41,571 nt of DNA from a virus. The translations under genes and the position numbers were made by a program. Within the stretch, counting starts at the first letter, position 1; every line of letters starts with the position of its first letter. Of this stretch, positions 5,013 through 38,360 are shown in pieces. The notes below the pieces were generated by a model. That model was given only the letters and a program-made list of their open reading frames with translations, was not told the DNA's origin and did not search any database. The stretch lies in UHGV virus genome UHGV-0131723, one strand, 5' to 3'.

Positions 5013-6794
5013 ATGAGTAAGTCACTTTACGCAGTACCAGCAGGTCTTAATGCAGATGCTTACAAGGCATCACATATATATCAGTATCCAGATGCTACGC
5101 AATATCTTATGTTGAACCTGACACCACGCAGTGATAAATGGTTTAACAGCCCCTTAGCAATTGATGGTGTAGTAGCTTTTGGTATTCAACGTTTTGTTAA
5201 AGATTACTTGATAGACCACTGGAATGCCACTTTCTTTGAACGTGATAAAAAAGAAGCAATTGACGAAATCTTAGAAGTCATGAATGGTGTTCTGGGTAAA
5301 GATGCTATCGGTAGAGAGCATTGGGAAGCACTTCACGACTTAGGTTATCTACCAGTTGAAGTATACGCTGTAGAAGAAGGCACAGTTGTCCCTATGCGTG
5401 TCCCAATGATTGTTTTCCAGAACACTGTTTCAGGTTTCCATTGGGTAGCAGGTTATCTGGAAGATGCTTTCTCTGCTGAGATTTGGAAGGCTTGTACCAT
5501 TGCAACTATTGCATTGCATTACAAACGCATCTGTAAGAAGTGGGCTGACCTTACTTGTGACAACGACTTGCATCTGCCCTATCAGTGCCATGACTTTGCT
5601 ATGCGTGGCATGTCAGGCTTTACTGATGACGCATTTAATGCTGTAGGTCACTTAACCAGCTTTAAAGGAACTGATAGCTTCCCTGCTGTATACACGGCTA
5701 AACGCATTTATGGGCAGTCTTACCCAATCTCTGATATTGGTAGCTCTGTACCAGCCACTGAGCACTCTGTAATGTGTGCAAACATTGCTTGGGAAGGTGG
5801 TAATGAGTTGATTGAAGAAGAAAGACGCTTTAAAGGTGAGTTACAAACCTTCCGTCGTTTCTTAACAGAAACTTACCCAACTGGTATTGCAAGTGTTGTT
5901 TCAGACACTTATAACTTCTGGAGAACTGTGTCAGAAATTTTACCAGCACTTCGCAAAGAGATTATGGGACGTGACGGTAAACTGGTAATTCGTCCTGACT
6001 CTGGAGACCCTGTACATATTGTCACAGGTTATAAAGCAATCCACTTAGAATGTGCTAAGAAGGCTTATTACGAGCACCTAAGCAAGCTGGAAGCCAGTGA
6101 CACAATGTTGAATGCTGTTCTGAACATGAAGCTTGAGAACATCAACTATGGTATTGCTGGATGGCTACTGTCAGAAGGCTACGAGATGGTTGTTGACAGA
6201 GAAGACTTTGAAGTTGCTGATACAGTGATGTTGAAAAATGCTTATATGGTTGGTTCTGCAAACGTTGTAACACGTCCTGTAGCTGAGATTGATGGAGCTA
6301 TTAAGACACTGTACAACATCTTTGGGGGAACTATTAACTCTAAAGGCTTTAAAGTACTGGATGAGCATATTGGACTTATTTATGGCGACTCTATCACGTT
6401 GGAACGTGCAAATGAAATACTGAAGCGTTTGTATGAAATGGGTTTTGCAAGCTCTAACGTAGTGTTTGGTGTAGGTTCTTACACTTACCAGTACATGACT
6501 CGTGACACCTTTGCATTTGCTGTCAAAGCAACCCTTGCAAGCATTGGTGGTAAAGAGATTATGCTTGCAAAAGACCCTAAAACAGATAGTGGTGTTAAGA
6601 AGTCTGCTTTTGGTGGTGTAGCACCTATGTGGGATGGTGAAAATCTGAAAGCTGTAGATGGCTATGGGTTCCAGAGCTTTGCAGATGCACTTGAACATCC
6701 AGCTTGTGCTTTACGTCTAGTCTTTAGCGACTCTGAGCAGTTCGGCTACACAACTCTTGGTGATATTCGAAATAATATTGACAAGCAGCTTTAA
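5013..6794 (+). CDS. nadV: Nicotinamide phosphoribosyltransferase (NadV/NAMPT-like)
   Basis: 593 aa; N-terminal YKASHIYQYP region and overall size recalled as NAMPT family. Confidence 0.8.
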   Translation: MSKSLYAVPAGLNADAYKASHIYQYPDATQYLMLNLTPRSDKWFNSPLAIDGVVAFGIQRFVKDYLIDHWNATFFERDKKEAIDEILEVMNGVLGKDAIGREHWEALHDLGYLPVEVYAVEEGTVVPMRVPMIVFQNTVSGFHWVAGYLEDAFSAEIWKACTIATIALHYKRICKKWADLTCDNDLHLPYQCHDFAMRGMSGFTDDAFNAVGHLTSFKGTDSFPAVYTAKRIYGQSYPISDIGSSVPATEHSVMCANIAWEGGNELIEEERRFKGELQTFRRFLTETYPTGIASVVSDTYNFWRTVSEILPALRKEIMGRDGKLVIRPDSGDPVHIVTGYKAIHLECAKKAYYEHLSKLEASDTMLNAVLNMKLENINYGIAGWLLSEGYEMVVDREDFEVADTVMLKNAYMVGSANVVTRPVAEIDGAIKTLYNIFGGTINSKGFKVLDEHIGLIYGDSITLERANEILKRLYEMGFASSNVVFGVGSYTYQYMTRDTFAFAVKATLASIGGKEIMLAKDPKTDSGVKKSAFGGVAPMWDGENLKAVDGYGFQSFADALEHPACALRLVFSDSEQFGYTTLGDIRNNIDKQL

Positions 6795-6847: not shown

Positions 6848-7183
6848 ATGAAAATCAAAGAGATGAACATCAACATCGTCTTAGAGGAACGTTGGGAGAA
6901 CATCAAGAAACCTGAAAATGGTCATAAGTTCCTTAACAAAATTTTAGTAGCAGCTAAAGAAGAACTGACTGGTAAGATTGCAGCAGCAATCACAATAAAG
7001 GTCTGTGTAAAAGGTCTTCCAGACAATCACCAATTTGCACTTGACGAGTTTAAAGAAAGCTTCTACAATCCAAATAAACAGATGCTTGAAAGTAACTTTG
7101 CAGTATCTACAAGTATCGTCCATGACAGAAGCTTTATCCTTTACAAGAATATGAGAGGTGAGTCATGCAAGCATATTGGATAG
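6848..7183 (+). CDS. Hypothetical protein
   Basis: ORF track; GGAG RBS. Confidence 0.5.
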   Translation: MKIKEMNINIVLEERWENIKKPENGHKFLNKILVAAKEELTGKIAAAITIKVCVKGLPDNHQFALDEFKESFYNPNKQMLESNFAVSTSIVHDRSFILYKNMRGESCKHIG

Positions 7184-7341
7184 AAATTTTACTGTCACTT
7201 GGTGGCGTAGCAGTGTTTGTTTACCTTCTTTGTAAGTACTATGCAGAGCACAAAAAATGTGACTACTGTAATGGGGAAGGTTATACAAGAGCAGGTTGTT
7301 GCCCTATGTGTGGTGGTTCTGGTAAAATGTTTAACAAGTAA
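7165..7341 (+). CDS. Small membrane-anchored zinc-finger protein (58 aa, not in ORF track)
   Basis: ATG after GAGAGGTGAG RBS; hydrophobic N-terminus then two CxxCxGxG motifs (CDYCNGEG, CPMCGGSG). Confidence 0.4.
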   Translation: MQAYWIEILLSLGGVAVFVYLLCKYYAEHKKCDYCNGEGYTRAGCCPMCGGSGKMFNK

Positions 7342-7369: not shown

Positions 7370-9736
7370 ATGCGCATGGTAAACGACCACGCAGAAGTGA
7401 TTAAGAGTTCAACTTCTTTAGAGACGTCTCAAGCACAGATTACAATGACACCTGAAATGTTCAGCCTTTTGAGTTCTGGTGTATATACCTTTAAAGAAAG
7501 GGCAGTGATTCGTGAACTGTCATGTAACGCAGTAGATGCTCAGAAAGAGGCTGGAAAAGAGAACATCCCATTCCATGTGCATTTACCTACTCGTTTTGAG
7601 CCTTACTTCGAAGTTCGTGATTTTGGAACTGGATTGACTCATGATAAAGTTATGAGTTTGTACCTAAACTATGGAGCTTCTACGAAGAATGACTCTAATG
7701 ACTACATTGGTGCAATGGGTATCGGCTCAAAGTCACCATTTGCAATTGCTCAGTCATTCACAGTATCTAGCTATGTTGATGGTGTTGTTAATAAGTACTC
7801 TGTTTATCTTGAGAATGGTATCCCTCAAGTAACTAAGCTGACAACTAACCCAACAAAAGAACCTAATGGTTTAGCTGTACGTGTGGCAGTTGCTGACCAC
7901 CGTATCTCAAAGTTCTTTGAAGAAGCTGGGAATGTGTACTCATACTTCACTGTAAAACCAGAAAGTAATATTGAGTACGACGATGTATTAGCAGATATGA
8001 ACGTCATTGCCCGTGAAGAAGGTGTTTATGATGCCATGATTCATAAGCACAGCTGGCGTTCTAGTGATAACAGGACAGAGTTTAATGTGGTGATGGGTAA
8101 CATTGCCTACCCTGTTAACATGGAAGCATTACTTGGTGATGATTTCTTCAAAGTATTGCCAGAATTTTTCCGTAGGAGCGTAGACCTTGTAAACATCTAC
8201 ATGCCTATTGGTTCAGTCGCTATTGCAGCTTCTCGTGAAGCATTGCAGATGAATGACACGACAAAAAATGTTATCATTGAGGCTACTAAAAAGATAACTG
8301 AAGCAATTACAAAGGATGTTATCAAGAAAGTTAACAGTCAACCTACACTCATGGATGCTGCACAGGCTTATGCTGAGTTACGTTTGAACTCACGAGAGAT
8401 GTTTAATGCTGTGTGTCCAAAGTTAGAGTGGGGAGGCGTTAAGCTTGATTCTCTGGAAGAAGAATTACTAAACATTCGTCGTGGAATTATCTACGCAGAA
8501 GACGGCTCAGTCATTTATGAACGTGACGGTAAAGGTAATATTAAGGTTGATAGGAACGGAAACAACATCCCTAAAGTAGATTATCTTTATGACCCAGTTG
8601 CTTATGTCAAGTTCAACTCTTTAGAGAGTAAGATTCGTGCAACAGCACTTTCCTACACTCAAGAGGCAAGTATGTTCAATATCTTTGGCGCAATGCGTAA
8701 AAGCCAAATTGAACAGTTTTTGTTTGTTATAAATGACCGTCGCAATAAAAATGGTACTGAGAAGACTGTAGGACGCAACCAAATCTTGCGTGGTGCATGT
8801 CGAGACTATGCCAGTGAGTCAAGTCTGTTTCACAGATACAATGGTATTGTCTTTGTATTCTCGACTGAAAAAGAGTTAGATGACTTAATCAATCTGCACA
8901 AACTTGATAAAAGCTTGTTAAAGATTGTGAAAATGTCTGATAAGGAACACCATTACCAGCGTAAAGAAGCTGTAAGAGGTGTTGTAAAACTCTGGAAAGC
9001 TGTTCCAGCAGAAGGTGTAGCCTCCTACAAAGAGGTGTCAGAGGACTTAGACACAATTGAAGAACCTCAGCTTTACATTAAGGCAATTGGTGACACAGTT
9101 GATGGTGAATGTTTTTGCTCATCTCCAGAAGATGTAGCTAAGTCAGTTGCTAATGTTACAGGTAAGACAGTCTATGTTTTCCGAAAAGCAAATTGGAAAA
9201 AGATACCAGAAGATTGGATTGAAGTAGATGAGAAACTCTTGAACGACAGCTTAACTGATGTTCACTGGATTAACCATAACAGATATATGACGCGTATCTA
9301 TATGAATGGTGTCCTTGACCTTACAAGCAGTTGGATTATTGCCAGAAACTTTACGTTTAATAACAGGAAGATTTCTCGCGGGTATTGTTATTCAAGGGAT
9401 ACAAACAAAACTATCTTCCTAGAAGGAAATGAAGAGGCTGTAGAGGCAATGTTCGGTAAAATCCAATACGTTGCTGCACCATTTGCATACACTTATACCA
9501 TTAGTGTATTGAAAACTTTGAAAGACTGTCTTGACAACGATACAAAGCTTTACAAGAAAATTAAGAAAGCTGGTGACCGTATGGTTATTAAGGTGGCAAA
9601 CTATCTTTCAAAAAGAAAACAAGAAAACTTCTTGCTTTCTCATTTAGATTGGAATAAAGTGTCACCCATCGAAGTGAGTAAGTTCTTAGGTTTTGATGTA
9701 AAATGTGTTCCAGAAGGGACTACAATTTACGATTAA
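7370..9736 (+). CDS. rIIA: rIIA-like protein (GHKL ATPase-like N-terminal domain)
   Basis: RAVIRELSCNAVDA, VRDFGTGL and SNDYIGAMGIGSKSPFA closely match the T4 rIIA N-terminus as recalled; 788 aa. Confidence 0.85.
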   Translation: MRMVNDHAEVIKSSTSLETSQAQITMTPEMFSLLSSGVYTFKERAVIRELSCNAVDAQKEAGKENIPFHVHLPTRFEPYFEVRDFGTGLTHDKVMSLYLNYGASTKNDSNDYIGAMGIGSKSPFAIAQSFTVSSYVDGVVNKYSVYLENGIPQVTKLTTNPTKEPNGLAVRVAVADHRISKFFEEAGNVYSYFTVKPESNIEYDDVLADMNVIAREEGVYDAMIHKHSWRSSDNRTEFNVVMGNIAYPVNMEALLGDDFFKVLPEFFRRSVDLVNIYMPIGSVAIAASREALQMNDTTKNVIIEATKKITEAITKDVIKKVNSQPTLMDAAQAYAELRLNSREMFNAVCPKLEWGGVKLDSLEEELLNIRRGIIYAEDGSVIYERDGKGNIKVDRNGNNIPKVDYLYDPVAYVKFNSLESKIRATALSYTQEASMFNIFGAMRKSQIEQFLFVINDRRNKNGTEKTVGRNQILRGACRDYASESSLFHRYNGIVFVFSTEKELDDLINLHKLDKSLLKIVKMSDKEHHYQRKEAVRGVVKLWKAVPAEGVASYKEVSEDLDTIEEPQLYIKAIGDTVDGECFCSSPEDVAKSVANVTGKTVYVFRKANWKKIPEDWIEVDEKLLNDSLTDVHWINHNRYMTRIYMNGVLDLTSSWIIARNFTFNNRKISRGYCYSRDTNKTIFLEGNEEAVEAMFGKIQYVAAPFAYTYTISVLKTLKDCLDNDTKLYKKIKKAGDRMVIKVANYLSKRKQENFLLSHLDWNKVSPIEVSKFLGFDVKCVPEGTTIYD

Positions 9737-9815: not shown

Positions 9816-10925
9816 ATGACTACTAAAACTAAAGCACAGATTGACGCAGAAATTTACAAACTGGTTAAAGAAGGTAAGCTGACTAAAACAGCTATTGCAC
9901 AGAAATTTAATACTTCAACCCGTTCAGTCGGTCGTGCTGTAGAGCGTCATGAAGCAACCTTAAAAGGGAATAAGAAGGCAACTTCTACACCAGCTACGAA
10001 GACTTTGAAACAAGTTGCTAAGACCTTTAAGAAGAAAGCTGGAAAACCAGTTGAAAAGGTAGTTAAAGACGCTGTACAGAAAGCTCCAGTAAATAAACTG
10101 CACGAAGCTATGCAGAAAGATGACAAGATTGAGTACATGATTACTGGTGATTCTGTAATTATGACTTATGGTTCAGAATCTGAAATTGTTGAGTCTACTC
10201 ATCCGAACTATCAAGAGATTGTAGTTCATGTTGTGAAAGGTGAGTTCAAGAAAGCCTTTGAACTGATGAACATTCGTAAGTCTATCGAAAACTTCACTCA
10301 GGGTGCTATCACAATCAAAGGTGACAAGCTATTCTACGGTGCTGTTGAGATGCGTTCTACTCTGGTTGACCGTATTCTTCACATGATGAAAACTGGCGAT
10401 AAAGGTTTTGAACGACTTGTAATGTTCTTCGAAAAACTGATGGAAAACCCATCTAAAGATTCTGTAGAACAACTTTGGGGATTTGTATCTCACCTTGATG
10501 TTGAAATTGATGGAGAAGGCTACATCATTGGTTGGAAGAAAGTCTCTACTCGTGAAGGTAAGCTGGTTGACTCCCACACCTACAAAGTTCCTAACGATTT
10601 GGGTAACATTGTAGAGATGCCACGTTGGATGGTTGATAATAACCGTAACGTGACTTGCTCTCAAGGTCTTCATGTTGGTGCTTGGGATTATGTTCGTAGC
10701 TTCTCAGGTGATACAATCCTGAAAGTTCGTGTCCACCCACGAGATGTTGTATCTGTTCCAACTGATTACAATGATATGAAAATGCGTTCATCACGTTATG
10801 AAGTTGCAGCTATCGTTGATAGCCAGCGTAATGTTCTGAAAGCATGGGATGGCAAGACTGAAGCTCTACATGTTATCGTTGGTACTGCTGGCGAACTTAT
10901 TTCTCAGCATAAACGTGAAATCTAA
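9816..10925 (+). CDS. rIIB: rIIB-like protein
   Basis: MRSTLVDRILHMMKTGD and KVRVHPRDVVSVPTDYNDMKMRSSRYEV match T4 rIIB motifs as recalled; directly downstream of rIIA. Confidence 0.85.
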   Translation: MTTKTKAQIDAEIYKLVKEGKLTKTAIAQKFNTSTRSVGRAVERHEATLKGNKKATSTPATKTLKQVAKTFKKKAGKPVEKVVKDAVQKAPVNKLHEAMQKDDKIEYMITGDSVIMTYGSESEIVESTHPNYQEIVVHVVKGEFKKAFELMNIRKSIENFTQGAITIKGDKLFYGAVEMRSTLVDRILHMMKTGDKGFERLVMFFEKLMENPSKDSVEQLWGFVSHLDVEIDGEGYIIGWKKVSTREGKLVDSHTYKVPNDLGNIVEMPRWMVDNNRNVTCSQGLHVGAWDYVRSFSGDTILKVRVHPRDVVSVPTDYNDMKMRSSRYEVAAIVDSQRNVLKAWDGKTEALHVIVGTAGELISQHKREI

Positions 10926-11026: not shown

Positions 11027-11575
11027 ATGAAGAAATTGATTCTAGGTTTGTGCTTAATGTTTACAGCACACTTATCTTATGCAGTTGACTGCCCAGAGCT
11101 ATCAATTAGCCAAAAAGTGAACATGTTAAAAGCTTACCAGTATGGTGAGAATAACATGGGTAAAGGTTGGGGTATCACTCTAGCAGCTATAGCCTTACAA
11201 GAGTCAGAGTTAGGTCTGAAGGTAGAGAATAAAAAGACACATGATTACGGTATTTTCCAGAATCACTTGAAGACTGTTGTAAAGCGTAACAAAATTAGTC
11301 CTAATGTTGCTAAAAAGAAACTCTTAAAAGATTTTGACTATGCCGCAAAAGAAACACATAAAGAGCTTGAGTTTTGGACGAAGGTACATGGTCACCCAAA
11401 GTCAAAGAAGACTTTACAAAAAGTTTTAGCATCATATAATGCTGGGTATTCGTACAGAATCCCTAAAGCTAAGAAATACTCTCAAGATGTCTATAACAAT
11501 ATGAAAGTTATCGCTCAATGTGAATTTGCAACAAACATTTCTAAGGTAAATCATGAAAAAATTAAGAAAGTCTGA
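11027..11575 (+). CDS. Hypothetical secreted protein
   Basis: N-terminal signal-peptide-like MKKLILGLCLMFTAHLSYA. Confidence 0.55.
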   Translation: MKKLILGLCLMFTAHLSYAVDCPELSISQKVNMLKAYQYGENNMGKGWGITLAAIALQESELGLKVENKKTHDYGIFQNHLKTVVKRNKISPNVAKKKLLKDFDYAAKETHKELEFWTKVHGHPKSKKTLQKVLASYNAGYSYRIPKAKKYSQDVYNNMKVIAQCEFATNISKVNHEKIKKV

Positions 11576-12248
11576 TGAAGTCCTGTGCCACGCTTATGAC
11601 TTGCATCCTCATGAGTTAGGTCTTGATTCCTGCGTATGGACTCCAGAACAGTGCAGGGATTTTGAAGACACTGCAAGAGAAGTTGTATGTTCACTTGAAG
11701 AGTTCCACACACCAGAACCAATTGTGAACGTTGTGGACAAAGAGACTGGACAAATTATAGGTGTAAGGCGTGATAGTTTAGTGATAGTCAATAAAGACCT
11801 TGTAGAAAAAGGTAACCTCATCTTAGCAGATATTGATGGTGTTCTTACAAATTTTAATCACGAAGATTGCTCAACGGAATTGACTGATGGGTCATTCTCA
11901 CAGTACACTAATCTTCTTGATTCTGTAAGAGCAAAACCAACATATGTTTTCAACATTATTGATGCAATTGCAAATCATGCAGCAGTTGGACTCTTGACAG
12001 CAAGAGGTGAATCTCAGAGAATACCTACTGAGATGTTTTTAAGGCACAATATAGAGCATGATTACTTGCTTTTTATGCGTGGTTTTGGAACTAACTCTAT
12101 AAGTGCAGAAAGTTTGAAAGTGAGGATGATTCAGTCTTGCATTCTTCCTTACTTTAATATAGTATGCTTTATAGAAGATACAGAGAAGAATGTTCAGAAG
12201 GTAAACAGAATCCTTCCACACATTAAAACCATGTTAGTTAAACATTGA
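11553..12248 (+). CDS. Hypothetical protein, possible HAD-like phosphatase
   Basis: LILADIDGVLTNF resembles HAD motif I (DxDG[TV]); weak. Confidence 0.4.
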   Translation: MKKLRKSDEVLCHAYDLHPHELGLDSCVWTPEQCRDFEDTAREVVCSLEEFHTPEPIVNVVDKETGQIIGVRRDSLVIVNKDLVEKGNLILADIDGVLTNFNHEDCSTELTDGSFSQYTNLLDSVRAKPTYVFNIIDAIANHAAVGLLTARGESQRIPTEMFLRHNIEHDYLLFMRGFGTNSISAESLKVRMIQSCILPYFNIVCFIEDTEKNVQKVNRILPHIKTMLVKH

Positions 12249-12259
12249 GAGAAGAACTT

Positions 12260-12724
12260 ATGAACAATATCATTACGGTAGCACTGGACGATACGGCAAA
12301 CAAATCTGAAGTAGTTCGTAAAATGATTCAAGGTAACTTTGAAGGTAAAATTTTCCGTGCTGTTAATGTAAAAGCTGATGGCAGCATTCGTGAATATCGT
12401 GCATTGTTGAACGTTAAGAAGCACGTAAAAGGTGTTGGTTCAACGACTGCACACAAAGAAAACCTGATGACTATCTATGATATGGGTAAGGCTTCAGAGT
12501 TAGGTGCTGAAGGTATCGTTAAAGAAGGTGCTCCGTATCGCTCTTTCAATCTGGAAACTACCCTTATGCTTTCCTTTACAAGTGGTTCCAAAACAATCAC
12601 TTATCTCTTTACTGATGCTGCAACGGTATCTGCTATTAAGGATAGCACTGTCAAAGCTGGCGTAGTTGCTGCTGCAAAAGCTTCTTCGATGGCTGCGAAT
12701 ATCCTTGCTAAAGTCCTCGGTTAA
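12260..12724 (+). CDS. Hypothetical protein
   Basis: ORF-track TTG start replaced by ATG at 12260 after GAGAGAAG RBS. Confidence 0.5.
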   Translation: MNNIITVALDDTANKSEVVRKMIQGNFEGKIFRAVNVKADGSIREYRALLNVKKHVKGVGSTTAHKENLMTIYDMGKASELGAEGIVKEGAPYRSFNLETTLMLSFTSGSKTITYLFTDAATVSAIKDSTVKAGVVAAAKASSMAANILAKVLG

Positions 12725-12732
12725 GGTTAAGA

Positions 12733-12758
12733 TACAGGCTCCTTCGGGAGCCTTTTTC
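12733..12758 (+). terminator. Rho-independent terminator
   Basis: GGCTCC-TTCG-GGAGCC followed by TTTTT. Confidence 0.65.
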
Positions 12759-12776
12759 ATTTCAGGAGATTGTTAA

Positions 12777-13124
12777 ATGACATTTAAAGAGTTCTGTCAA
12801 GCTACTTTCATAATTGTTTTCTTAGTTGGGACAGGTGTCTGGGGAGGATACTCTTACAGAGACTACCAAGTTGCTGAAACTGAGCTAAATAATGAGAAAC
12901 TAATAAGTGTTGCCAAAGATGCTTATCAGGAAGGTTTAGCCACACTCAGCACCAATTACAAAAATGATTTGAAAGATGTGCTTGCTAAGAATAAGCACAC
13001 AAAAGAGGTACTAACGTATGAAAAAACTAAGCCAGAGTTTTATAATGTTTGTGTTACTGATAATTATGTCAGGGTGTTCAACGAACAAAGTGAACAGTAC
13101 ATTCAAAAACTCCCAAGTAAGTGA
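12777..13124 (+). CDS. Putative i-spanin (Rz-like)
   Basis: N-terminal TM helix then charged helical periplasmic region; GGAG RBS; overlapped by a lipoprotein ORF in another frame. Confidence 0.5.
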   Translation: MTFKEFCQATFIIVFLVGTGVWGGYSYRDYQVAETELNNEKLISVAKDAYQEGLATLSTNYKNDLKDVLAKNKHTKEVLTYEKTKPEFYNVCVTDNYVRVFNEQSEQYIQKLPSK

Positions 13125-13287
13125 GAGTGATAAGTACACTCAAGAAGATTCAAGATTTACTATCAAAGGTAATACTGGTAGTGATGTGGCAGCAGCCCTT
13201 GAGTTCTATCGTGATGGATTTTACCAGTGTACAATTAAAGCTAATAACCTTATTGACATGATTTTATTAGGGAATAAGCAGCAATGA
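13018..13287 (+). CDS. Putative o-spanin (Rz1-like lipoprotein)
   Basis: Signal peptide ending in lipobox-like IMSGC; start embedded out of frame in the 3' end of 12777..13124. Confidence 0.45.
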   Translation: MKKLSQSFIMFVLLIIMSGCSTNKVNSTFKNSQVSESDKYTQEDSRFTIKGNTGSDVAAALEFYRDGFYQCTIKANNLIDMILLGNKQQ

Positions 13288-14297: not shown

Positions 14298-15077
14298 ATG
14301 GGTATTGTAAAAGTTGTAAAAGGTAACTTACTGGCTGCCTTCAAAAACACAGATATTGAGTTAATTGCTCATGGTTGCAACTGTCGTAACCTCATGGGTG
14401 CTGGAATCGCTCAAAAAATTGCTAAGATTTTCCCAAAAGCTGAAGAAGCTGACCGGAAATTCCATAAAAAGTTTGGCTACAGTGCTCATGATATCGGATA
14501 CCAGATGGTTGGTGAGGTGTCACATGCTCGAACGGAGTATGGTTACATTTTTAACCTATATACACAGTTGGATGTTGGGAAGTGTGCATCATACCGATAC
14601 TTAGTGGAGTCACTAGAAAAACTCCGTAAATTTTGCTGGCTGCACAACATTCGTAAGATTGGTTTACCCATGATTGGGGCAGGTATAGGCGGTTTAGATG
14701 CACAAGCTGTGAAAAGCCTCATTAATAGTGTTATGTATAACGTTGATGTGTACCTCTACGTCTATGATGAAGCAATGGCAAGTGTAGTTACCCCTAAGTA
14801 TGCTACCTCAGCACCACAATTCTATGATGGTGTCGTGCTAAGTGACGGGAAGACTAATCAAGTTACCCTCTATCAGCTTGTTGATGGCAAGGTTGAGGTT
14901 AGTTACCCTCTGGTTAGTGAGATGGGTATGTGTAACAGTGAAATGTTCCCAGTTGACCCGTTTGGAAGATATGAAGGGGTGTTCTTTGATAACTACCCAG
15001 CAGCATACATCTACACAACAAATCAGGATGAAGTTCACTACTTGCTGTATTCTAAAAAGTTCAAATTCATAAGCTGA
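14298..15077 (+). CDS. Macro-domain-like protein (possible ADP-ribose binding/processing)
   Basis: N-terminal IAHGCNCRNLMGAGIAQ resembles the macro-domain glycine-rich ADP-ribose loop; assignment by memory only. Confidence 0.5.
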   Translation: MGIVKVVKGNLLAAFKNTDIELIAHGCNCRNLMGAGIAQKIAKIFPKAEEADRKFHKKFGYSAHDIGYQMVGEVSHARTEYGYIFNLYTQLDVGKCASYRYLVESLEKLRKFCWLHNIRKIGLPMIGAGIGGLDAQAVKSLINSVMYNVDVYLYVYDEAMASVVTPKYATSAPQFYDGVVLSDGKTNQVTLYQLVDGKVEVSYPLVSEMGMCNSEMFPVDPFGRYEGVFFDNYPAAYIYTTNQDEVHYLLYSKKFKFIS

Positions 15078-21892: not shown

Positions 21893-21930
21893 TCGACGCA
21901 GCGGGGCTATTTAGCCCCAGATACCCTAAC

Positions 21931-21956
21931 AGCCCCTATTTAAAGGGGCTTTTTTA
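21931..21956 (+). terminator. Rho-independent terminator closing the plus-strand block
   Basis: AGCCCCT-ATTTAA-AGGGGCT + TTTTTT; preceded by a GGGGCTATTTAGCCCC hairpin. Confidence 0.65.
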
Positions 21957-22299
21957 CGTCTATCGAATCCTTATACAATCCCTTTCCCTCACCTTTCCAG
22001 AATCTTATCAGACCTTAAAAGCAATAACTCTATAGTCTACTCTATAACCTCTTATCAAATCAACTTAAATATAAGCCCATAACCCGAAAGGGAAGGGCAA
22101 CCCCTTAAACGCTCTATAACGCCCTATAACAGCCTTATCAACCTAACTTAAGGGGTTGCATTAACTCACCCTAAAAAGCCCTTCCTAGAGCTTCCCAGAG
22201 ACTTAAAAGAATCTTATAAGGGTGTAAGCTTTATCATCTCATTAGTATTCTTGTGAATAACTAAACAACCCCTTGATAGTCACTAAAAAGTATGTTATA

Positions 22300-22386
22300 G
22301 GGGCTTTAAAGTTACGTAAAAGGGGCTATAAAGTTACGTAAAAGGGGCTATAAAGTTACGTAAATGCTAGCCCCCTTAACATTTTC
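22300..22386. repeat. Four tandem copies of a 22-bp unit
   Basis: GGGGCT(T/A)TAAAGTTACGTAAAA x4, head to tail. Confidence 0.8.
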
Positions 22387-23350
22387 TTAACAATTTCTTA
22401 ACAATCCCTACATAGTTATGCTTTTAAGGCACTTGTTAGCAACTTGTTAGCCCCTTGTTAAATCTCTGTTAAAACCACGTAAAAGCCTTGTAAGAACCTT
22501 TGACATAGCCTTTAAAGCCCCTGTAAAGCCCTATAAAGAGGTATCTGTACAGTTGGGGTGTAATTACTAGGAAGAGGTTTAAAAGAGCTTACAAGGGGCT
22601 ATAGAGAGCTTTTAAGAGGTATGTTTAAAGAATCACTAAGAAAGGAAAGGGAACGATAAGGAAAGAGTAGTGACCATGTTAATAGATTGTTAAAAAGATT
22701 AAACACTTGTTAGAAACTTGTTAATTATCTTAACAAAATAACTCTTAAAAATTAACTTGTTAGCTCTTGTTAGTCATCTGTTAAGATTCTGTAAAGCCTA
22801 TTCAGCACTTGTTAGAAAACTGTTACGCTCTTGTTAGTTCTGTTAAGAATCTGTTAAGACCTTTGAAGAGATGTTAAGAAGATGTAGTAACTGTTAAGAG
22901 ATTGTTAAGGATATTTTAAAATTTTGCAAAGTACTTGTAAGGGAGCTGTTAAGGGCTACCAAGCAGATATACATCTTCTACAGATATTTTTCAGTTCCTT
23001 CAAAGACCCTAAAAAATGACTTGATAGTCCTATTTTATAAAAATTTTAAAAATCTGAATAATTACCTATACAGTCTTTCTAAAATACAGGTAATAACAGG
23101 CTTATAAGATACCTTGTTAGTACCGTGTTAGACCTTGTGAGATAAGGCCTGTAAAGATATTCCTGTTAAGTTTGTTAAAACAGTCTATATAGAGGCTTAG
23201 TAGCACCTAGTGAACACCTATAGAGAGTGTCATAGCTGACATAGAGATTAAGAGGTGTATAGGAGCTTCTAAGAGTGTATAGAGAGATGGTTAAGGTGAT
23301 TGTATAGGTTGTTAAGAAGGCTTGTTAGAGGGCTTGTTAGAAGGATTATA
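22380..23350. repeat. Dispersed short-repeat field
   Basis: More than 25 copies of (C)TTGTTA(G/A)/CTGTTAAG (some inverted as CTTAACAA), often 8-12 bp apart. Confidence 0.7.
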
Positions 23351-23535
23351 CAGAGGGGCTATTAAGACCACTAGGTAGTTACTAAGATACTATATAGTAC
23401 TATATAACTATATAGAGAGTAAGATTAAAAAGGTTGTTAAGAAGGATAGATATTTTGTTCACATATGATGGTGACCCAGAGGTTGGGACAACCGATAAAA
23501 TTTTATAAAAAATATAAATTTCGTAAATTTTACTC

Positions 23536-23562
23536 AATAAAAAGCCCCCAATTAAGGAGGCT
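23536..23562 (-). terminator. Rho-independent terminator closing the minus-strand block
   Basis: On minus strand AGCCTCC-TTAATT-GGGGGCT then TTTTATT. Confidence 0.55.
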
Positions 23563-23573
23563 ATTAAGATATT

Positions 23574-35697: not shown

Positions 35698-35772
35698 GCA
35701 TCCATAGTTTAAACGGGAAAATTACAGTCTTCCAAACTGAGGTTGAGGGTTCGATTCCCTCTGGATGCTCCA
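35698..35772 (+). tRNA. tRNA-Gly (UCC)
   Basis: Acceptor GCATCCA/TGGATGC; loop CTTCCAA; T-arm GAGGGTTCGATTCCCTC. Confidence 0.7.
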
Positions 35773-35778
35773 AACAAT

Positions 35779-35855
35779 GCTGCTTTCGTATAATTGGCTA
35801 TTACACATCCCTTGTAAGGATGGAAATGCAGGTTCGAGTCCTGTGAGCAGCACCA
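35779..35855 (+). tRNA. tRNA-Thr (UGU)
   Basis: Anticodon stem CATCC/GGATG, loop CTTGTAA. Confidence 0.7.
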
Positions 35856-35950
35856 ATTCAGAGGCCAAGTGAAAGACCGCTGGTGTCAACTGAAGACCGT
35901 AACAAATTCCACGGAGTTGAGTTAGCGGCACAACTTCAGACCTCTTTCAC

Positions 35951-36025
35951 ACTCGCTTAGTTTATATGGTAAAACATCACCCTTACAAGATGAAGAAAAA
36001 GGTTCAAGTCCTTTAGTGAGTACCA
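35951..36025 (+). tRNA. tRNA-Val (UAC)
   Basis: Loop CTTACAA; T-arm AAAGGTTCAAGTCCTTT; CCA encoded. Confidence 0.6.
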
Positions 36026-36026
36026 T

Positions 36027-36104
36027 GTTCCAGTATCCCAATTGGCAGAGGATGCAAGCTCAAACCTTGTACTAGTGACGGTTCGAATCCGTCTTGGAAC
36101 ACCA
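36027..36104 (+). tRNA. tRNA with CAA anticodon (Leu by code), short variable arm
   Basis: Anticodon stem GCAAG/CTTGT, loop CTCAAAC; discriminator A; 78 nt. Confidence 0.5.
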
Positions 36105-36109
36105 ATTTT

Positions 36110-36185
36110 GCAGGATTAGTTCAAATGGATAGAGCAACAGTCTACGAAGCTGTTAATAGGGGTTCGAATCCCTTATCCTGCGCCA
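36110..36185 (+). tRNA. tRNA-Arg (ACG)
   Basis: D-arm GTTC/GAGC; loop CTACGAA; CCA encoded. Confidence 0.7.
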
Positions 36186-36203
36186 GATAAGCAAGAGGAA
36201 TTT

Positions 36204-36446
36204 ATGCAAACATTAATCGTCGTTGAACATGAAAATCCCAATAGTATTGAGTTTGTAAGGGTTCCCACTATAGATACCCACATTTTCTTGAAAGTCGGAT
36301 GGGAATGCGACCCAATAAAAGTAGAAAGATTTATTGGTCATTGCTTTGGTGGAAGACAACTTAAAAGCATCAATTTTGAGACAATGTTACCAGAAAGCTC
36401 AGAAACAAATAATAATGCTTACCTCCTTACGAGGGTTAGACAATGA
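36204..36446 (+). CDS. Hypothetical protein embedded in tRNA cluster
   Basis: ORF track; AGAGGAA RBS. Confidence 0.5.
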   Translation: MQTLIVVEHENPNSIEFVRVPTIDTHIFLKVGWECDPIKVERFIGHCFGGRQLKSINFETMLPESSETNNNAYLLTRVRQ

Positions 36447-37000
36447 GATACTTAAAATATGTTTCATGGATTTTCTTAGCTTTGTTAGAACCATTTGCAG
36501 CAACCCTAGCAGTCATCTTAGCACCTTTCGTAGTTCCATCCTACAGTGAGAAGAAAGGACACTTACCTTTCGGGTTCAGATGGATGGAGACCTATGACAA
36601 CCCAATTGATGGTGATGAAGGTCACGTTAAAAGATGGGCTAATATTAGATGGATTGGTAAGCTGGGTGTCTACATGCAGAGAGTTGGATGGCTCTGGAGA
36701 AACAAAGCTTATAACTTCTCTTACCATGTATTAGGAAGAGATGTAAAAGATGTTACTAAGTGGAAAGGTAATATCAACGTAAGTTCTGACCCCGAAGATA
36801 ATCAGACAGGTTATCTCCTAATGTGGAACAGTAATGCTTGGGGATTATTCGCTTTTATCCCATCAATTAAAATCTTTGGTAAACAATTTTACTGGAGAAT
36901 TTATATTGGATGGAAACTAAAAAGTGTTGTCCCAGAAGAAAGAGCATTCTCAAGGGAAAGAGTTATGTTGGCATTCTTTATTCATCCACTGAGAAAGTAA
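36443..37000 (+). CDS. Hypothetical membrane protein embedded in tRNA cluster
   Basis: ORF track; N-terminal hydrophobic segment; ATGA overlap with upstream ORF. Confidence 0.5.
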   Translation: MRYLKYVSWIFLALLEPFAATLAVILAPFVVPSYSEKKGHLPFGFRWMETYDNPIDGDEGHVKRWANIRWIGKLGVYMQRVGWLWRNKAYNFSYHVLGRDVKDVTKWKGNINVSSDPEDNQTGYLLMWNSNAWGLFAFIPSIKIFGKQFYWRIYIGWKLKSVVPEERAFSRERVMLAFFIHPLRK

Positions 37001-37008
37001 AGATTTAA

Positions 37009-37084
37009 AGGGGATTAGTTTACAAGGTTAAAACCTCGGTCTTTGAAATCGAAGAAGTTGGTTCAATTCCAACATCCCCCGCCA
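37009..37084 (+). tRNA. tRNA-Gln (UUG)
   Basis: Loop CTTTGAA; T-arm GTTGGTTCAATTCCAAC; 1:72 A-C mismatch. Confidence 0.65.
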
Positions 37085-37086
37085 AT

Positions 37087-37165
37087 GCTCCATTACTCCA
37101 ATTGGCAGAGAGGCCAGACTTAAAATCTGTGTTATGTATCGGTTCGAATCCGATATGGAGTACCA
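37087..37165 (+). tRNA. tRNA with UAA anticodon (Leu by code), short variable arm
   Basis: Loop CTTAAAA; T-arm ATCGGTTCGAATCCGAT; discriminator A; 79 nt. Confidence 0.5.
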
Positions 37166-37170
37166 AATTT

Positions 37171-37246
37171 AGCGGTATAGCATAACTGGCAATGCAGCAG
37201 CCTCTGAAGCTGTCCTATTAAGGTTCAAATCCTTATGCCGCTGCCA
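37171..37246 (+). tRNA. tRNA-Gln (CUG)
   Basis: D-arm GCAT/ATGC; anticodon stem GCAGC/GCTGT, loop CTCTGAA. Confidence 0.65.
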
Positions 37247-37277
37247 CTTCTAAGGATTCTTGCGAGAGTCCTTAAAT

Positions 37278-37353
37278 GTGGCCTTATCATAAATGGTAAT
37301 GACCCATGCTGTGAACATGGTCTATACGGGTTCAAATCCCGTAGGTCACCCCA
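37278..37353 (+). tRNA. tRNA-His (GUG)
   Basis: Anticodon stem CCATG/CATGG, loop CTGTGAA; discriminator C. Confidence 0.7.
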
Positions 37354-37359
37354 ATTTAT

Positions 37360-37435
37360 AGTCCAAGTAGCTTATATGGTTAAAGCGCGTGTCTGAAAAA
37401 CATGAGAAGAGGGTTCAAATCCCACTGGACTACCA
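37360..37435 (+). tRNA. tRNA-Phe (GAA)
   Basis: D-arm GCTT/AAGC; anticodon stem CGTGT/ACATG, loop CTGAAAA; acceptor register uncertain by 1 nt. Confidence 0.55.
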
Positions 37436-37451
37436 ATTTCAAAGGTGCTTA

Positions 37452-38186
37452 ATGAAAGAGATGACAGAACAAGGTAAGGAGATTTTTAATCTCTTAAAAA
37501 CCGGTAAAGGGTTCTCTAACCCACTTATTACTGGTGCAGCAGTTCTCGGTGGAACCGTAGCTGCTTCTACATCACTTGTAAGCTCTATTAGTTCTGTAAC
37601 AGACCCTACAATGAAGGAGAAACTTGTTGCTGCTGGACTTACAACAGTCCTTCTAAACAGCTTTACAACAAGCCTGACAAGCACTACAGCAACTACTAAG
37701 ACCCTAACAGAATATGGTCAAAAGTCTATTGATGAGTTTTCATCACGTATGCAGGTAGCAAAGGGATACTCCAATGTTATGGGTGCAGCAGGAGAACAAG
37801 TTGGTTGTACACCATTCAGTGGTATTATGGGTGTTGCTACAGAATATGGTCAAAAAGCTATTGACATGATGAACAGTACACTAGATAGTGTTAATGGTGT
37901 GTTAAGTGACTTACAAGATGCTATTGACAAAGGTCTTGATACTATTTCTGATTTAGCTAACCAAGCTGTTAGTAAGATTAATGAAGGTATTTCGAAGATT
38001 ACAGCTTATGCAGATGAAGTTGTGCAGATGATTGAAGAAGAAGCTGCTCTTATTGCAGAGTACCTTAAAACGAATATCAATGGGTTCTTAGCAGGTATCT
38101 TACCAGACTGGTTTGATGATGCTTGTAAAACTGGTGTGATTGACACTATTGCAACACCAGAAATGAAGAACGCATTACAGAAATAA
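37452..38186 (+). CDS. Hypothetical protein with internal repeat
   Basis: ORF-track GTG start at 37389 lies inside tRNA-Phe; first ATG after AAAGGTG RBS is 37452; repeat TEYGQKSIDEF.../TEYGQKAIDMM... Confidence 0.5.
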   Translation: MKEMTEQGKEIFNLLKTGKGFSNPLITGAAVLGGTVAASTSLVSSISSVTDPTMKEKLVAAGLTTVLLNSFTTSLTSTTATTKTLTEYGQKSIDEFSSRMQVAKGYSNVMGAAGEQVGCTPFSGIMGVATEYGQKAIDMMNSTLDSVNGVLSDLQDAIDKGLDTISDLANQAVSKINEGISKITAYADEVVQMIEEEAALIAEYLKTNINGFLAGILPDWFDDACKTGVIDTIATPEMKNALQK

Positions 38187-38187
38187 T

Positions 38188-38280
38188 GGAAGATTAACCC
38201 TAAAAGGTAAGGGAGCAGTTTGCTAAACTGCCAGTAGCTGAGAAATCGGTGTACCAGTTCAAGTCTGGTATCTTCCTCCA
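38188..38280 (+). tRNA. tRNA-Ser (GCU), long variable arm
   Basis: 93 nt; anticodon stem GCAGT/ACTGC, loop TTGCTAA; T-arm ACCAGTTCAAGTCTGGT. Confidence 0.7.
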
Positions 38281-38284
38281 ATTT

Positions 38285-38360
38285 GAATCCGTGACAGAAA
38301 TGGCTATGTGCCTGTCTGCAAAACAGGTTTATAAGGGTTCGAGTCCCTTCGGATTCTCCA
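38285..38360 (+). tRNA. tRNA-Cys (GCA)
   Basis: Anticodon stem CCTGT/ACAGG, loop CTGCAAA; discriminator U; CCA encoded. Confidence 0.7.

Follow-up and report, generated by a model that had tools for sequence, protein, structure and literature searches.

Spanins of the Felix O1 type are the closest described relatives of the gene pair analysed here. The catalogue of Kongari et al. 2018 (PMC6139136) places the genes of the Felix01 spanins at positions 5330-5678 (i-spanin) and 5571-5841 (o-spanin) of NC_005282 and assigns them to the class 'ovl', with an overlap of 107 nt. Two further systems provide a basis for comparison. In phage lambda, a type II inner-membrane subunit (Rz) and an outer-membrane lipoprotein (Rz1) are encoded in different frames of shared DNA, carry periplasmic cysteines and are presumed to disrupt the outer membrane in the last step of lysis (PMC6139136). 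Rz1 is located wholly inside Rz, an arrangement termed 'embedded'; the system has a pair of coiled-coil domains, its Rz1 is rich in proline, and the genes belong to a holin-endolysin-spanin cassette. In phage T4, by contrast, the lysis genes are dispersed and the spanin genes pseT.3 and pseT.2, classed as 'separated' (4-nt junction; PMC6139136), are found in a block next to the polynucleotide kinase gene, in the order alc-pseT.3-pseT.2-pseT.1-pseT. The T4 o-spanin has no proline-rich region and has conserved cysteines, with two periplasmic cysteines in the o-spanin and none in the i-spanin; the T4 spanins complement lambda Rz/Rz1 mutants, and their Cys residues matter for function (PMC6139136).

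The stretch of 41,571 nucleotides analysed here, referred to below as the window, belongs to a Felixounavirus, a Felix O1-like myovirus, and carries the same spanin genes as Felix O1 (NC_005282 p014 as i-spanin with an overlapping o-spanin; SpaninDB). The i-spanin gene is 348 nt long and the overlap 107 nt in both, the Shine-Dalgarno context and the position after rIIA-rIIB-PNK are likewise the same, and only a few amino-acid substitutions separate the two pairs of proteins. Both subunits give full-length matches, with the same layout, to the Felix O1-type family (PHROG 1152 / 4180; the 'Felix01, FO1a, UAB_phi87' group of Kongari et al.). By these sequence matches, the pair is the Felix O1 i-spanin/o-spanin, already known and annotated. 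On the strength of signals, architecture, conservation and analogy, we consider it highly probable that the two open reading frames (ORFs) encode the subunits of the two-component spanin of a Felix O1-like myovirus. The initial annotation of the window had proposed a two-component spanin pair with dispersed lysis genes, and family matches, curated literature, the annotation of near-identical phages and selection in both frames now bear this out.

Comparison with lambda and T4 spanins

The window pair shares with lambda Rz/Rz1 the combination of a type II inner-membrane subunit and an outer-membrane lipoprotein encoded in different frames of shared DNA, together with periplasmic cysteines and the presumed role. 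However, the two systems differ in gene arrangement. The initial annotation had described a classic embedded Rz/Rz1 arrangement, which has to be corrected to 'overlapped' because the o-spanin gene, which begins at codon 81 of the i-spanin gene, continues for 163 nt beyond the i-spanin stop; the Felix01 pair is listed as 'ovl' as well (PMC6139136). Substantial differences are also seen in the proteins. No coiled coil is detectable in the window pair and its o-spanin is free of proline, so that the pair lacks the two features to which fusion is attributed in lambda. Finally, the lambda genes form a single cassette, whereas the window pair is situated 15 kb from the endolysin gene. Membership of the lambda Rz/Rz1 family was rejected on the overlapped arrangement, the lack of a heptad signal and of a proline-rich region, and the lack of a Pfam match.

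Resemblance to T4 PseT.3/PseT.2 lies in the dispersal of the lysis genes, in the location of the spanin pair in a block next to a polynucleotide kinase gene (here in the order PNK-unknown-i-o) and in an o-spanin with conserved cysteine but no proline-rich region. The window genes differ from those of T4 in being overlapped rather than separated, and in encoding one periplasmic cysteine in each subunit. In BLASTP comparisons with PseT.3/PseT.2, the i-spanin gave an E value of 0.95 and the o-spanin aligned in the signal peptide only (E 0.033). With no sequence similarity outside the signal peptide, membership of the T4 family was also rejected. Phage Mushroom, a relative of the window virus, has been described in the literature as having a 'T4-like lysis system'.

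Genomic context of the spanin pair

Over 3.1 kb round the pair, the window shares 98.4% identity with Escherichia phage ECML-1 and 97% with wV8; this stretch matches 258 phage records, nearly all of them from Felixounavirus. The genes preceding and following the pair are listed in Table 1 together with the signals discussed below. A putative terminator, recognized in a consensus scan, separates the pair from the genes upstream; the equivalent position of wV8 is annotated as a rho-independent terminator, and terminators are also annotated just 5' of the spanin pair in Paul and phiEa21-4. A promoter scan between the hairpin and the i-spanin start gave no convincing sigma-70 promoter. At the other end of the pair, the stop codon of the o-spanin gene and the start codon of the gene that follows share the sequence ATGA (13284-13287). 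A PDB sequence search returned no match for the SLT-like neighbour.

Table 1. Coordinates of the spanin genes, their signals and other features of the window.
Feature	Position	Strand	Description
rIIA	7370-9736	+	Upstream of spanin pair
rIIB	9816-10925	+	Upstream of spanin pair
Secreted SLT-like protein	11027-11575	+	Upstream of spanin pair
Polynucleotide kinase (PNK)	11553-12248	+	Upstream of spanin pair
Gene without assigned function	12245-12724	+	Between PNK and hairpin
Terminator-like hairpin (putative)	12736-12753	+	AGGCTCC-TTCG-GGAGCCT then TTTTTC; 23 nt 5' of i-spanin ATG; consensus scan
i-spanin Shine-Dalgarno AGGAG	12764-12768	+	8 nt before ATG
i-spanin gene	12777-13124	+	ORF, ATG, 348 nt, 115 aa; hydropathy, phrog_1152 match, Kongari table
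Predicted i-spanin TM helix codons	12792-12848	+	FCQATFIIVFLVGTGVWGG; residues ~6-24
o-spanin Shine-Dalgarno GAGG (in AAAGAGG)	13005-13008	+	Inside i-spanin CDS, 9 nt before ATG
o-spanin gene	13018-13287	+	ORF, ATG, 89 aa precursor; +1 frame relative to i-spanin
Dual-coding overlap, 107 nt	13018-13124	+	i-spanin residues 81-115; in the +1 frame, o-spanin signal peptide and N-terminal linker
i-spanin Cys92 codon	13050-13052	+	Sole periplasmic cysteine; invariant in five diverged homologues
o-spanin Cys20 codon (lipobox IMSG/C)	13075-13077	+	Predicted lipid-modified first mature residue; pattern match
o-spanin Cys71 codon	13228-13230	+	Only other cysteine; in conserved C-terminal motif LEFYRDGFYQCTIKANNLID; invariant in five homologues
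Macro-domain protein	14298-15077		Downstream of spanin pair
Endolysin (lysozyme family)	28198-28662	-	Pfam Phage_lysozyme 6.7e-41; phrog_7 endolysin 1.2e-57
Putative class III holin	36443-37000	+	185 aa, one N-terminal TM (residues 9-27), Pfam DUF7338

The position of the pair, in a block that starts with rIIA/rIIB and PNK and 15 kb from the endolysin gene, would also suit a different function, in which the 89-aa lipoprotein is an early, non-lytic envelope protein acting in superinfection exclusion or receptor masking (cf. T5 Llp, Cor) and the 115-aa protein is an unrelated partner or has a separate function. In line with this, PHROG files phrog_4180, the family of the lipoprotein, under 'unknown function', and the literature searched yielded no experiment on Felix O1-type spanins. 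However, the T4 spanins also adjoin PNK, far from e and t, and location is therefore uninformative. The obligate pairing of a type II inner-membrane protein gene with a lipoprotein gene that overlaps it is kept across the Ounavirinae and in an unrelated podovirus, and the conserved C-terminal domains of both proteins suggest a heteromeric complex. In addition, the receptor of Felix O1 is LPS according to the literature, which leaves a porin-masking lipoprotein without an obvious target. We regard a non-lytic function of the lipoprotein as very unlikely.

The inner-membrane subunit

Consistent with the initial annotation, which had seen an i-spanin-like protein with an N-terminal transmembrane (TM) helix and a charged body, the 115-aa product shows a short cytoplasmic N-terminus, a predicted TM helix and an 88-residue periplasmic part of which 31% is charged. 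The TM call rests on hydropathy: residues 6-24 form the best 19-residue Kyte-Doolittle window (mean 1.62) and the single hydrophobic stretch of the protein, with none later in the sequence. An AGGAG- or GAGG-type motif occupies the Shine-Dalgarno position in 30 of 30 related sequences. The protein matches phrog_1152, labelled 'Rz-like spanin' in PHROG, over residues 1-115 (E 1.4e-41). It is 100% identical to its closest relative, from Felixounavirus LF82P9, and the Felix O1 protein (NC_005282) differs from it at 3 of 115 residues (97.4% tblastn identity). Pfam (E <= 0.01) and NCBIfam scans of both spanin subunits found no spanin family and only spurious low-score matches, and a PDB sequence search with both subunits gave nothing below E 0.25.

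A TM helix combined with a periplasmic coiled coil had been set as a test of the i-spanin reading in the initial annotation; the helix is predicted as described above, while the coiled coil is not found. In a crude heptad test, the score of the protein was equalled or exceeded in 265-417 of 500 shuffles, and the Pepcoil table of Kongari et al. likewise gives 0 coiled coils for the Felix01 i-spanin (PMC6139136). This does not refute the spanin reading, because more than 120 accepted i-spanins are without a coiled coil (PMC6139136). The secondary structure listed for the Felix01 i-spanin is 66% helix and 10% strand (table S2 of PMC6139136). An AlphaFold2 model of the window protein, built from the single sequence and of low confidence (pLDDT 52.6), shows helices at residues 27-72 and 103-111 and strands within 78-101. 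The periplasmic part probably consists largely of helix, with a short β element close to the conserved cysteine.

T4 RI has an N-terminal TM or signal-anchor segment followed by a periplasmic domain of about 90 residues. The 115-aa protein shares this topology, and might accordingly be read as an RI-like antiholin or another holin regulator, the overlapping ORF then encoding a separate lipoprotein. Against this, the best family match of the protein is with spanins (E 1.4e-41), its coupling with a lipoprotein gene is conserved, and the stretch surrounding the Paul homologue shows no rI or rII genes in its annotation. The conserved part of the protein is, moreover, the C-terminus encoded in the overlap, the usual site of contact with an o-spanin. 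We regard a role in holin regulation as very unlikely, and the 115-aa protein is treated below as an i-spanin.

The outer-membrane subunit

The initial annotation had placed the start of the second gene inside the first, in another frame, and had pointed to a lipobox-like IMSGC signal in its product. Both observations hold: the gene overlaps the i-spanin gene by 107 nt in the +1 frame, and the N-terminus of the 89-aa protein, MKKLSQSFIMFVLLIIMSG/CST, contains a lipobox, LLIIMSG/C20, that fits a PROSITE-style pattern (regular expression), with Ser at +2 and Thr at +3. Among the 153 ORFs of at least 50 aa in the window, three pass a loose lipobox filter, and the other two are antisense or out of frame inside larger ORFs. 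The C-S-T motif at Cys20 is invariant in five diverged homologues and SGC in 30/30 Felixounavirus sequences. The AAAGAGG ribosome-binding site of the gene is also invariant in all 30. The predicted mature protein has 70 aa and 0 prolines.

In searches against PHROG, residues 1-88 of the o-spanin match phrog_4180 (E 1.7e-50), and a weak match (8e-5) is found to phrog_456, 'Rz-like spanin'. The closest o-spanin, that of Shigella phage JK55, is 100% identical.

Both reading frames of the overlap are conserved

The conservation of the two genes was analysed in 29 related loci from viral contigs, which together with the window make up 30 Felixounavirus sequences; 28 of these are distinct, and nucleotide identity goes down to 78%. 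In none of the 30 is either ORF interrupted or altered in length. In the part that encodes only the i-spanin, nucleotide diversity is 0.120, variation shows a third-position excess in the i-frame, pN/pS is 0.15 and synonymous divergence 0.37. In the part that encodes only the o-spanin, diversity is 0.154 and the third-position excess is in the o-frame, with a pN/pS of 0.11 and a synonymous divergence of 0.56. In the 107-nt overlap between them, diversity falls to 0.054 and the third-position excess is lost; pN/pS is 0.53 in the i-frame and 0.80 in the o-frame, and synonymous divergence 0.09 and 0.065, respectively. Synonymous change is thus four- to eight-fold lower in the overlap than in the flanking single-coding parts. 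Wrong-frame controls gave pN/pS values of 1.0-2.1, with values of about 2 in the other frames 3' of the i-spanin stop. The third-position signal passes from the i-frame to the o-frame where the i-spanin gene stops, and synonymous change is strongly reduced in the shared DNA, which shows that the overlap does code for both proteins. The substitution pattern indicates that both overlapping genes are under purifying selection. The overlap also encodes the conserved C-terminal motif of the i-spanin, YEKTKPEFYNVCVTDNYVRVFNE.

An 89-codon ORF lying partly within another gene could in principle be a chance ORF in an alternative frame, leaving the 115-aa gene as the only real one. Indeed, 3.4% of codon-order shuffles yield an alternative-frame ORF of at least 89 codons in this AT-rich DNA, and the ORF is often unannotated or hypothetical in related records. 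However, in the part of the ORF beyond the i-spanin gene, variation is concentrated in third positions of the 89-aa frame, where pN/pS is 0.11 compared with about 2 in the other frames; the ORF, its Shine-Dalgarno sequence and the SGC lipobox are intact in 30/30 sequences; and homologues with a lipobox are found at 27-48% identity. The chance origin of the ORF is refuted by the substitution pattern and retains next to no probability.

Sequence features of two-component spanins

The pair was compared with the criteria of Summer et al. 2007 and Kongari et al. 2018 for two-component spanins. Hydropathy predicts for the i-spanin a single N-terminal TM segment (N-in, C-out) followed by a periplasmic C-terminal domain, and pattern matching predicts for the o-spanin an outer-membrane lipoprotein signal with no Asp at +2. 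The i-spanin gene comes first and the o-spanin gene overlaps it. Both subunits contain a periplasmic cysteine, C92 in the i-spanin and C71 in the o-spanin, that does not vary among five diverged homologues; of 528 spanin systems, 507 have one or more periplasmic cysteines that could form intermolecular disulfides (PMC6139136). At the level of sequence, the pair shows every feature of a two-component spanin that can be examined in this way.

Conservation in distant relatives

Homologues of both subunits are found in Hafnia phage SarahDanielle and Erwinia phage phiEa21-4 (Ounavirinae) and in the podovirus Kuravirus Paul. Despite amino-acid identities of 26-48%, the overlapped layout is retained in all of these relatives, as are the N-terminal hydrophobic stretch, the lipobox and the CST motif. 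The i-spanin alignment comprises five diverged homologues that are 26-76% identical to the window protein, and its invariant positions are E82, K83, F88, N90, C92, Y97 and F101-N102-E103. In the o-spanin alignment, invariant positions are C20-S21-T22, G54, E62, C71, N76 and L78. Across the diverged homologues, a single periplasmic cysteine is conserved in each subunit.

The pair of phage Paul (phiEco32-like), gp036/gp035, shows an i-spanin tblastn identity of ~31-36% and an alignment identity of 27% for each subunit. Its annotators report a TMpred TM domain at residues 8-23 of the i-spanin and a LipoP SpII cleavage site at 19/20 of the o-spanin. The Paul locus resembles the window in its overlapped layout, in the terminator annotated just upstream and in the macro-domain gene just downstream. 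However, Paul differs in virus family and morphology, and its proteins have diverged from those of the window except in the C-terminal motifs. Since Paul belongs to a different virus family, the module appears to have been moved horizontally or to be very old.

Dispersed lysis genes

The endolysin had been located on the opposite strand from the letters of the window, with no holin evident next to it, and both points are upheld. The gene at 28198-28662 matches the Pfam and PHROG lysozyme and endolysin families (Table 1) and closes a block of tail genes, at a distance of 14.9 kb from the spanin pair; its neighbour at 28662-29546 matches a tail-protein family. No holin adjoins the endolysin gene, because its neighbours are without a TM segment. 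This agrees with Felix O1 and UAB_Phi87, which have no holin gene next to the lysin (PMC4837284).

A candidate holin gene is found elsewhere, inside a cluster of 25 tRNA genes (Table 1). Its product is 94% identical in amino-acid sequence to that of a CDS annotated 'holin' in phage Mushroom. Homologues of ~57% identity in Klebsiella, Enterobacter and Escherichia phages of 170-178 kb are annotated as hypothetical, and a PHROG search with those candidates of the window that were examined matched no family annotated as holin. The assignment as a holin is weak, the one in Mushroom being topological only. With this candidate, the three lysis functions would be spread over 24 kb and both strands, and scattered lysis genes have been published as a trait of Felix O1-like phages.

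Proposed mode of action

By analogy with lambda and T4 (PMC6139136), we infer where the subunits are located, that they form a complex with disulfides, how they bring about fusion and that lysis requires them. The 115-aa product would insert into the inner membrane by its N-terminal helix (N-in, C-out), with ~88 residues exposed in the periplasm. The 89-aa product would be exported, cleaved by signal peptidase II and lipid-modified on Cys20, and the Lol system would sort it to the inner leaflet of the outer membrane, a destination predicted because Ser, not Asp, stands at +2. Binding between the i- and o-spanin would then occur through their conserved C-terminal parts, giving a complex that reaches across the periplasm through the peptidoglycan meshwork; as in the spanins of lambda and T4, C92 and C71 would probably form intermolecular disulfides in a Dsb-dependent manner. 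Once the holin had permeabilized the inner membrane and the lysozyme had degraded the peptidoglycan, the spanin complexes would be freed. As the last lysis step, they would destroy the outer membrane, most likely by its fusion with the inner membrane.

A variant of this scheme is suggested by the lack of a coiled coil and of a proline-rich region and by the single conserved periplasmic cysteine that each subunit carries within its conserved C-terminal motif. The membranes may be joined by a heterotypic junction of compact form, such as a disulfide between C92 and C71, and not by the homotypic disulfides and coiled-coil collapse proposed for lambda. The proteins may also be made early, as an envelope tether in place before lysis, since their genes follow a putative terminator within the rII-PNK block. 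We consider this variant unlikely. Felix O1-type spanins are without the structural features invoked for lambda spanin function and make a reasonable subject for a comparative study of mechanism.

Annotation in related phages

As the spanin is a catalogued one of a well-sequenced genus, and its scattered lysis genes have already been published, the importance of the locus is small beyond correct annotation. The pair is annotated as i-spanin and o-spanin in radambza, BPS17W1, Mushroom and many other records. In many GenBank records of the genus, one or both genes are labelled 'hypothetical', or the o-spanin ORF is left unannotated or annotated from a start that is too far downstream. In radambza, the annotated o-spanin start is placed 48 nt downstream, at Met17, and the signal peptide is thereby lost.

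Holin candidates

The gene that a relative's annotation would single out as the holin encodes a DUF7338 protein and sits within the tRNA cluster (Table below). This label looks doubtful, since homologues of about 57% identity occur in Klebsiella, Enterobacter and Escherichia phages of 170-178 kb, where they are annotated as hypothetical. An alternative holin candidate is encoded 2.3 kb downstream of the endolysin gene and in the same orientation. Its counterparts are called 'membrane protein' in some relatives, and identity falls to 47-55% in several related phages (SUSP2, Moogle and Sf17).

Features considered alongside the lysis genes. Coordinates refer to the window unless a locus is named; L034 and L035 are the loci of the two phages in that row.
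Feature	Coordinates	Strand	Remarks
58-aa ORF	7165-7341	+	just upstream of rIIA
SLT-like protein, 182 aa	11027-11575	+	signal peptide; sub-threshold Pfam SLT match
Strong terminator-like hairpin	12736-12753	+	23 nt before i-spanin start
Macro-domain protein ('phosphatase'/Tk.4-like)	14298-15077	+	~1 kb downstream of spanin pair
Macro-domain counterparts	L034 2966-3406; L035 2784-3566		Kuravirus Paul and Erwinia phage phiEa21-4
ORF-poor region, ~1.65 kb	21900-23570		between + strand and - strand gene blocks
Candidate holin (alternative), 167 aa	25349-25852	-	strongly hydrophobic central TM segment, residues 88-106, KD 2.73
tRNA cluster, 25 genes	33206-38360	+	ARAGORN
DUF7338 protein, 185 aa, single N-terminal TM	36443-37000	+	Pfam DUF7338; 94% identity to Mushroom 'holin' CDS

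Expression, annotation and surroundings of the spanin genes

No recognisable sigma-70 promoter lies between the terminator-like hairpin and the i-spanin start, and terminators are annotated at the equivalent position in wV8, Paul and phiEa21-4. Spanin expression may derive from limited read-through of this hairpin. In public records one or both spanin genes are entered as 'hypothetical protein', as in the wV8 RefSeq record, ECML-1 and many others. The o-spanin CDS of Escherichia phage radambza (L001 3566-3787, MN850639) starts 48 nt (16 codons) too far downstream, at Met17, so that the signal peptide is lost from the annotated product.

Downstream of the pair, the macro-domain gene has counterparts directly 3' of the homologous spanin pair in both Paul and phiEa21-4, so that spanin and macro-domain genes are neighbours in a subfamily of myoviruses as well as in a genus of podoviruses. 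Upstream by 1.2 kb, and flanked by rIIB and the polynucleotide kinase gene, lies the gene for the SLT-like protein. The product carries a type I signal peptide (MKKLILGLCLMFTAHLSYA|VD). It also matches the Pfam SLT lytic-transglycosylase family with an E value of 9e-4 and a score of 19.2 bits, below the cutoff of 21.3. The labels given to its relatives disagree, reading 'putative lysin' in radambza, 'lytic transglycosylase domain' in a Hafnia phage and 'endoribonuclease, T4 RegB-like' in Mushroom. If it is a secreted muralytic enzyme, it could act as a second lysis or entry factor.

Other features of the window

The region between the two gene blocks, which contains no ORF of at least 60 aa, is dense in short direct and inverted repeats with units of the CTTGTTAG/TGTTAAGA type, and includes three copies of AAAGTTACGTAAAAGGGGCTAT spaced by 22 nt at 22286-22366. 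This stretch may have a regulatory function or serve as an origin of replication. The tRNA cluster is broken by two ORFs, the DUF7338 gene and a 265-aa ORF (37389-38186) matching phrog_2114, a family of unknown function; an additional weak Rfam tRNA match, without an ARAGORN call, was found at 34781-34859. The product of the small ORF preceding rIIA has a hydrophobic segment at its N-terminus, together with a cysteine-rich motif of the CxxCxGxG type; the matching position in Mushroom is labelled as a DnaJ-like 'heat shock protein'.
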